The notes under the pieces: model-generated
Told to the model about the DNA's origin: nothing
Seen by the model: only the letters and a program-made list of their open reading frames with translations
Database searches by the model: none
Shown: positions 34,929 through 34,998 of the stretch, piece by piece
How positions within the stretch are numbered: the first letter of the stretch is position 1
How the letters are laid out: each line of letters starts with the position of its first letter
DNA from: Octopus vulgaris
Lineage: Eukaryota
Direction: 5' to 3'
DNA length: 64,000 nucleotides
Assembly (NCBI GenBank): GCA_951406725.2
Contig: OX597827.1
Coordinates: 64,790,001 to 64,854,000, forward strand
Position numbers and translations under genes: made by a program

Positions 34929-34998
34929 CCTGGACCAATGGTTTCAGACTTTGTTTAGTAAATAAAATAATTTGCTAGGCGAAGCCTTCTTCAGCAGG
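34929..34998 (-). ncRNA. Type I hammerhead ribozyme with canonical core
   Basis: 5'-CCUG CUGAAGA AGGCUUCGCCUAGCAAAU-UAUUUU-AUUUACUAAACAAAGUCU GAAA CCAUUGGU C CAGG-3'. Stem I CCUG/CAGG, long imperfect stem II, stem III ACC/GGU, GUC cleavage triplet. Confidence 0.8.

Follow-up and report, generated by a model that had tools for sequence, protein, structure and literature searches.

According to the accessible portions of the published accounts, PLE insertions are characterised by 5' truncation, an inverted head-to-head copy, a tail of 30-40 nt at one end and microsatellite targets (PMC8557442, PMC3846280). For animal type I hammerheads a dimeric mode of cutting is known (PMC4209133). A recent study of Xenopus reports that one of nine predicted retrozyme dimers cut in vitro, and that 24 of 57 retrozyme families matched known repeats, nearly all of them PLEs (10.64898/2026.07.22.740005). 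Peripheral Watson-Crick pairing between stems I and II has been predicted for about 40% of hammerheads, in all three types, and in one type II hammerhead a stem I-stem II pseudoknot is needed for speed (Perreault et al. 2011, PMC3088659). No octopus or cephalopod hammerhead or retrozyme family of the type described below was found in full-text searches of the literature (subscription papers, repeat libraries and supplements may hold one), and the main text of an octopus repeat annotation mentions neither ribozymes nor hammerheads (PMC13282606).

Here we consider a hammerhead motif in a 64-kb stretch of the Octopus vulgaris genome (the window). Very probably the motif is the hammerhead of a truncated copy of a 470-nt non-LTR retrozyme, likely pasted into its site by a PLE enzyme. 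The locus itself is ordinary, being one decayed copy among an estimated total of roughly two thousand.

Structure and conservation of the hammerhead

The type I hammerhead occupies positions 34929-34998 of the minus strand, where an inner stem I, a CUGAAGA/GAAA core, a two-part stem II, a stem III and a GUC triplet can be read directly. The inner stem I (CCUG at 34998-34995 with CAGG at 34932-34929) leads into CUGAAGA at 34994-34988, followed by stem II (34946-34987), GAA at 34945-34943 and the near-palindromic stem III ACCAUUGGU at 34942-34934, which pairs over 3 bp with a 3-nt loop in a monomer and as a longer duplex in a dimer. Position 34933 corresponds to C17, and by the established hammerhead numbering the cut is predicted 3' of it, between 34933 and 34932. 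An earlier reading of the sequence alone had named the same core, triplet and CCUG/CAGG stem on this strand, which is borne out, and had placed cleavage after the C complementary to 34933, with which the predicted cut agrees. Its description of stem II as one helix of about 18 positions has to be replaced: a 6-bp proximal helix (AGGCUU at 34987-34982 with AAGUCU at 34951-34946) is followed by an internal loop (CGCC at 34981-34978 against AACA) and a distal hairpin at 34977-34956, which has eight positions (seven paired in the window copy, with a mismatch at 34959) and a 6-nt loop. Outside the inner stem I there is a bulge with GGUG at 35001-35004, the predicted pseudoknot partner of CGCC at 34981-34978, and beyond it an outer stem I (34921-35010), in which 35010-35005 pair with 34926-34921 except for a mismatch at 34925.

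The window copy carries the whole core, C3 U4 G5 A6 N7 G8 A9, G12 A13 A14 A15 and U16 H17, surrounded by three helices with stem I open, and these helices covary across subfamilies. The pair 10.1-11.1 is A-U, the usual (non-obligatory) G10.1-C11.1 being absent; across subfamilies it is G-U, G-C or A-U. The epithet "canonical" given to the motif earlier is appropriate for the core, but not for this pair or for the two-part stem II.

A type I descriptor applied to both strands of the window gave a single match, at 34929-34998, while 200 dinucleotide shuffles yielded on average 0.16 loose matches and no strict ones. Rfam gave no hammerhead match with 34790-35145 at E<=10 (two chance snoRNA matches appeared), and for the whole window the 150 matches listed of 318 proved to be microsatellite look-alikes below the cut-off. 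The Infernal/RNAMotif search proposed in the sequence-only reading was positive for the descriptor and negative for Rfam; probably, the long stem II defeats the Rfam hammerhead models. One might regard the motif as a chance resemblance in view of the missing Rfam match and of the folding stability of the 70-mer, which is not above that of shuffles (z 0.49). The lack of strict matches in 200 shuffles and the compensatory changes between subfamilies reduce the probability of such a coincidence almost to nothing, and at the family level it is refuted by covariation. The hammerhead at 34929-34998 is real, and its assignment to type I is supported by the sole descriptor match together with the family covariation.

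This covariation was analysed, as had been suggested, in 30 hand-picked copies, the kinship of which inflates the pairing measures. Two-sided changes were revealed in five of the six stem I pairs and in four of the six proximal stem II pairs, and 89.5% of the cells are paired (shuffles, 80.9%; slid partners, 21-48%). The number of pairs changed on both sides, 11, does not exceed what shuffles give, since 140 of 500 reach it. The Fisher and binomial values assume independence of pairs that are dependent and are descriptive only. RNAalifold recovers stem I and the proximal stem II unaided, and does not recover the distal hairpin or stem III. Between subfamilies stem I is represented by CCUG/CAGG, UUCCUG/CAGGAA, CGGUCA/UGACCG, CGGUUA/UAACCG and UAGCCA/UGGCUG, the cleavage triplet is GUC or GUA, and the outer stem I consists of different paired letters in the sister families, which thus show a fold retained while its letters changed. 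Because both strands of stems I and II have changed with pairing preserved, it is likely, judging from these alignments, that the hammerhead fold was kept by selection in source copies or lineages. The distal stem II hairpin is nearly invariant between subfamilies while the other stems drift, and our guess is that it serves as a protein-binding handle.

The stem I bulge starts with GGY in all seven subfamily consensuses, and the internal loop of stem II is CGCC in six of the seven; the CUCC of the remaining one, a two-copy cluster, could be a C/U change due to CpG decay. The predicted GGYG/CGCC complementarity comprises 3-4 bp and is placed where hammerhead stems I and II meet. Its cells are paired in 80.8% and a two-sided change is seen in just one cell, so that the pseudoknot is predicted from conservation and complementarity, without convincing compensatory change.

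For stem III of the window copy the hairpin has +0.4 kcal/mol and the duplex -8.9 kcal/mol. The sister families possess perfect 8-nt palindromes, ACCAUGGU and ACCUAGGU, with monomer pairing of only 2 bp, and their central pair switches between A-U and U-A (16 versus 14 sequences), which with a palindrome of 8 nt is usable only in a dimer. The double hammerhead is better than two monomers by 7-15 kcal/mol in five of five subfamily consensuses and in the window copy (short linker); for the full-length dimer of family A the advantage is about 4 kcal/mol. Even the consensus monomer fold is less stable than its own ensemble, by about 3.7 kcal/mol (computed without the pseudoknot). These models favour the double hammerhead over the monomer and support the earlier idea that the near-palindrome could also form in a dimer.

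Repeat family, insertion footprint and the window copy

The island bearing the motif is a copy of a repeat, with at least 109 matches obtained from the 40 candidates scored of 3051 first-look ones. We searched a genome of 2.8 Gb in 227 contigs, rich in microsatellites and other repeats. The exact core with stems I and III was detected in 70 copies against none in the control, and the copy count proposed earlier thereby confirmed a repeat family (family A); sister-type motifs gave 261 matches and the exact motif of one of the two 3' ends described below (end A) 591, each against none in the control. From the sister-motif and end-A counts we roughly estimate about 2,000 insertions (range 1,600-2,700) for the whole clan of related families, and 260-500 hammerhead-bearing copies of family A. 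The unit is thus dispersed over hundreds of sites. Among the fetched loci (L numbers), two 101-nt stubs (L081, L082) and three duplicates (L017, L026, L080) were dropped from the family A counts, and L156 (family B) and L244, L254, L256, L263 and L271 (overlaps or repeats) from the end-A set.

In the 86 loci that could be resolved, the tandem unit is about 470 nt long and has no long reading frame. Family A diverges from its consensus by 5.8% on average and by 2.1% at minimum (129 segments longer than 150 nt), and the mean indicates that the family is old. Family B, to which a relative encountered by chance in L107 led, is 74% identical to family A and has equal unit length and matching ends. 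Of the 137 hammerhead regions, 14 stand alone and the others form seven clusters with at least two members each. Copies that extend upstream of the unit start enter their own unit tail in family A, family B and further subfamilies, therefore the clan represents a closed non-coding unit. Arrays with two hammerheads occur, for example in L010, L019, L024 and L056. The unit has 33% GC, is 63% paired and in circular form is predicted to fold stably (z -4.6 against 40 shuffles).

Some other properties of the clan and its surroundings were recorded. In the 5' part of the unit the subfamilies share a conserved GC-rich motif, located 65-110 nt before the core (e.g., L010:1455-1520). When families A and B were aligned with the 200-nt upstream regions of 15 U2 genes, the similarity did not exceed that of shuffles, and an snRNA-type promoter was rejected; the U2 snRNA genes themselves (L273-L287) have a common ATCAGT-containing element about 45-62 nt upstream, likely the proximal sequence element. 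A signature of A-to-I editing was also rejected (A>G 0.020 and T>C 0.017 per base, no bias). L249-L251 and L032/L080 are near-identical including their flanks and represent segmental or assembly duplicates, not new insertions. The stretch of about 30 nt just downstream of the ribozyme (window 34890-34915) shows several-fold higher contig depth than the rest in two genome-sized runs, which suggests that still more distant families carry it.

Analysis of 140 segments from 85 family A loci revealed that 113 stop at one of two 3' ends, A or B, situated about 100 nt apart and bordering on (TA)n, and that the 5' ends are scattered. A microsatellite adjoins 88 of the 113 typed 3' ends versus 9 of the 42 outer 5' ends. 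All 27 head-to-head pairs with both ends typed combine A with B (21 further pairs have an untyped end), and in 25 loci for which the end-A motif was the sole criterion of choice the same holds for eight of eight such pairs, with seven untyped. In L166, from a sister family, both arms have like ends and identical flanks, and because of these flanks it looks like a later inverted duplication. Segments longer than one unit make up 33 of the 140 and reach 907 nt (1162 nt in L262), the arrays seen being at most about 2.5 units long. In total, the copies display the 5' truncation, inverted head-to-head copy, one-end tail and microsatellite target of PLE-type insertions.

The window copy follows this pattern. 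Its main arm (34785-35076, minus strand) is a 5'-truncated segment comprising positions 80-373 of the 470-nt family A consensus, carries the hammerhead, ends at 3' end A and is 93.5% identical to the consensus. The inverted arm (35073-35146, plus strand) comprises unit positions 387-460, ends at 3' end B and has 94.6% identity. The arms are joined head-to-head with a 4-nt overlap at 35073-35076, the whole insertion covering 34785-35146. Each 3' end enters a TA-type microsatellite, (TA)n/(TG)n at 34698-34789 at end A and (AT)n/(AG)n at 35145-35244 at end B, both being the likely target. The island between microsatellites (about 34790-35150) noted from sequence alone thus turns out to be exactly the element.

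Four changes distinguish the ribozyme region of the window copy from the family A consensus. At 34985 an A-U pair became G-U, a common variant (26 of 103); 34959 is the mismatch of the distal hairpin, 34953 a change in the internal loop and 34925 the mismatch of the outer stem I. With fixed pairs the hammerhead fold has -8.1 kcal/mol, and with only the core pairs forced -13.8 kcal/mol, versus -19.8 kcal/mol for the consensus in both cases. The penalty of the window copy is 6.7 versus a median of 4.5, ranking 39th of the 46 foldable family copies (70 parsed). The divergence of 6.5% is ordinary decay, given the family mean of 5.8%.

It may be asked whether this copy is nevertheless an active ribozyme with a local role, such as cutting of a host transcript. 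Its core, inner stem I, stem III and both predicted pseudoknot strands are intact, while in loci picked regardless of the core one of four full hammerheads has an intact core. Against this, the four changes weaken the fold, the minimum-energy fold of the 70-mer is a non-hammerhead misfold, the divergence is not below the family average, no host coding gene was recognised among the long reading frames of the window, and no contig matching the locus end to end was seen. We consider a local role very improbable. The window copy is old, 5'-truncated and likely dead. Because it has only one hammerhead, with no second intact one nearby, bears four destabilising changes and lacks a partner unit, its cutting should be inefficient and it would be unable to free a unit on its own; slow cutting is possible, since the core and both predicted pseudoknot strands are intact. 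The term "potentially active", applied to the motif earlier, suits the family design and only weakly the window copy, with its changes, predicted misfold and lack of a neighbouring hammerhead.

Copying of the unit and its possible partners

We suppose that the process begins with transcription of a source locus bearing at least two units, that two hammerheads in the transcript pair via the stem III palindrome, with the GGYG/CGCC pseudoknot holding stems I and II together, and cut to release a one-unit RNA, which would probably be ligated into a circle. A borrowed PLE enzyme would then nick (TA)n and start copying the RNA at two fixed points, one for each DNA end; it would pass over the ligated cut site and in some cases go round the template repeatedly.

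Instead, uncut linear tandem transcripts might be copied with no circle involved, the hammerhead being kept for another step or cutting rarely. There is no accumulation of 5' ends at the predicted cut site, only 4 of the 140 segments starting within 6 nt of it, which is about the expectation for an even spread; the site is crossed by 101 of the 140, a number inflated by the choice of most family A loci for a whole hammerhead. The weak monomer fold and contigs spanning the cut site also agree with a linear template. The derived letters speak against this: repeated pieces within a locus have 22% of them in common when tandem (26 pairs) and 25% when inverted (51 pairs), compared to 8.5% between loci, and the letters shared within a locus include locus-private ones, as if one unit had been reread. 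One template unit read more than once is the best fit to these data, although a homogeneous tandem source or gene conversion could also produce such sharing. In addition, covariation shows selection on the fold, and circles have been demonstrated for coral, mussel and axolotl retrozymes in the accessible text of PMC7229834. On balance we regard copying of uncut linear transcripts as rather unlikely, and prefer the reread, probably circular, template.

Family-like words are present in runs of five organisms, and in the contigs of runs guessed to be RNA there are shallowly covered pieces resembling the family, some of which extend across the cut site, without strand or end information. One contig joins the unit end to the unit start, which a tandem copy explains likewise.

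The unit might also be the pseudo-LTR of an autonomous PLE, the copies then being its truncated ends. The PLE-type ends agree with this, as does the occurrence of type I hammerheads in the pLTRs of PLEs (PMC4209133, as far as its accessible part goes), and at one locus, that of a sister copy (L199), an endonuclease remnant lies 400 nt upstream. However, upstream extensions enter the unit's own tail in families A and B and further subfamilies, no consistent PLE protein match accompanies the unit, and the neighbour in L199, which was rejected as a partner, belongs to a nested insertion, the hammerhead unit standing behind only 1 of 30 copies of that PLE. We find a pseudo-LTR origin improbable. 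The earlier alternative of "PLE pLTR or retrozyme remnant" is supported and can be made more specific: the island is a truncated member of a 470-nt non-coding retrozyme clan with Penelope-type ends.

The search for an autonomous partner of the retrozyme gave no PLE with matching ends among the two PLE families and one further hammerhead family compared, and no reading frame with RT and GIY-YIG was found between or beside units in the loci fetched. A young PLE family that neighbours L020 and L107 also has (TA)n at its end, in some copies with a tail of about 34 nt (its Pfam RT match is below the cut-off), and was rejected as a partner since its 3' end is not homologous to the unit. An old hammerhead family (L115-L128, L168) has the stem III letters of family A in a different unit that ends 50-100 nt after the ribozyme; it too was rejected, for its unit and ends and for a pattern count of 100 against 95 in the control. 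Same-strand hammerhead pairs in L048 (2.2 kb apart) and L167 (0.76 kb) have no reading frame between them.

Other mobile elements were noted in the window and in the fetched loci. At 16781-17015 (minus strand), within TA repeats, there is the 5'-truncated 3' end (88% identity) of another PLE family, with a decayed type I hammerhead of unrelated sequence and a changed core start. This family (L213-L242), which we take from its motifs to be Nematis-like, encodes RT followed by a GIY-YIG endonuclease and has a 3' UTR of about 800 nt with its own hammerhead, which likewise has a long interrupted stem II. The young PLE family mentioned above (L091-L114, e.g., L111:2394-4796), abundant and presumably Neptune-like by its motifs, has top copies with 90-98% protein identity, frames up to 801 aa and a hammerhead-like motif with altered core, CUGAACGC then GAAACCGGUC, in its 3' UTR. 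A SINE-like repeat of about 184 bp, very common in the fetched loci, forms short tandem arrays at window positions 3161-3593, 17887-18548, 30190-30743, 33303-33736 and 38170-38531. Fragments of retrotransposon frames, which we assume from their motifs to be LINE-like C-terminal parts, lie at 35641-36102, 48322-48873 and 55496-55903 (minus strand) and at 58272-58457 (plus strand), the last being a weak GIY-YIG remnant (E 4e-4).

Comparison with known systems

At the level of sequence, the clan qualifies as an animal non-LTR retrozyme, a known class: the family consists of non-coding tandem units with one type I hammerhead each (the window copy being a truncated monomer), and the unit is self-paired and far below 50% GC. 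With the retrozymes described in the available text of PMC7229834 and 10.64898/2026.07.22.740005 it has in common this low-GC tandem organisation, a self-paired circle fold (here predicted), a dimer-type stem III, many solo copies and life beside PLEs. The clan differs in a unit of 470 nt, slightly above the 170-400 nt given in PMC7229834, in short arrays, in regular two-armed insertions with two fixed 3' ends, and in a long stem II of two parts, the distal hairpin of which is invariant, together with a predicted pseudoknot. Its circles and cutting are predictions, and unlike 24 of the 57 Xenopus families it has yielded no homologous autonomous pLTR (10.64898/2026.07.22.740005).

The endonuclease-bearing PLEs, as presented in the accessible parts of PMC4209133, PMC8557442 and PMC3846280, resemble the clan in 5' truncation, partial tandems, an inverted head-to-head copy, a tail at one end, microsatellite targets and a type I hammerhead with palindromic helix III. 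The clan has no RT or endonuclease frame, its tail is about 100 nt instead of 30-40, and its hammerhead is full-sized with an extended stem I, whereas those of PLE pLTRs are minimal. The newt and axolotl satellite 2 and Schistosoma Sm-alpha (accessible text of PMC6155905 and PMC7229834) are similar in having a repeat-borne type I hammerhead, a weak helix III rescued by the double hammerhead and an internally looped helix I, but their stem II is short and loop-closed (helix II of 4 bp in canonical motifs).

The likeness to the pseudoknotted hammerheads, in the part of PMC3088659 available, consists in peripheral Watson-Crick pairing between stems I and II, which in the clan is predicted; there it would join a stem I bulge to a stem II internal loop with a further hairpin beyond, and comprises only 3-4 bp without compensatory support. 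Tentatively, and with a rather low chance of being right in full, we suggest that the clan combines such a bulge-to-internal-loop pseudoknot with the invariant hairpin as a handle for the PLE enzyme or a host factor, and with one circle copied from two points at once. If this is true, two fixed start points, one per DNA end, would explain both the "tail at one end" of PLEs and the inverted arms, and the pseudoknot-locked hammerhead would represent a design not described for animal repeats.

The clan is of moderate use. Its hammerheads, with their compensated stems, form a set of natural variants that suits tests of dimer cutting and of the predicted pseudoknot. Its regular insertion ends provide sequence-level support for PLE enzymes moving animal retrozymes, and make the model of two start points testable.
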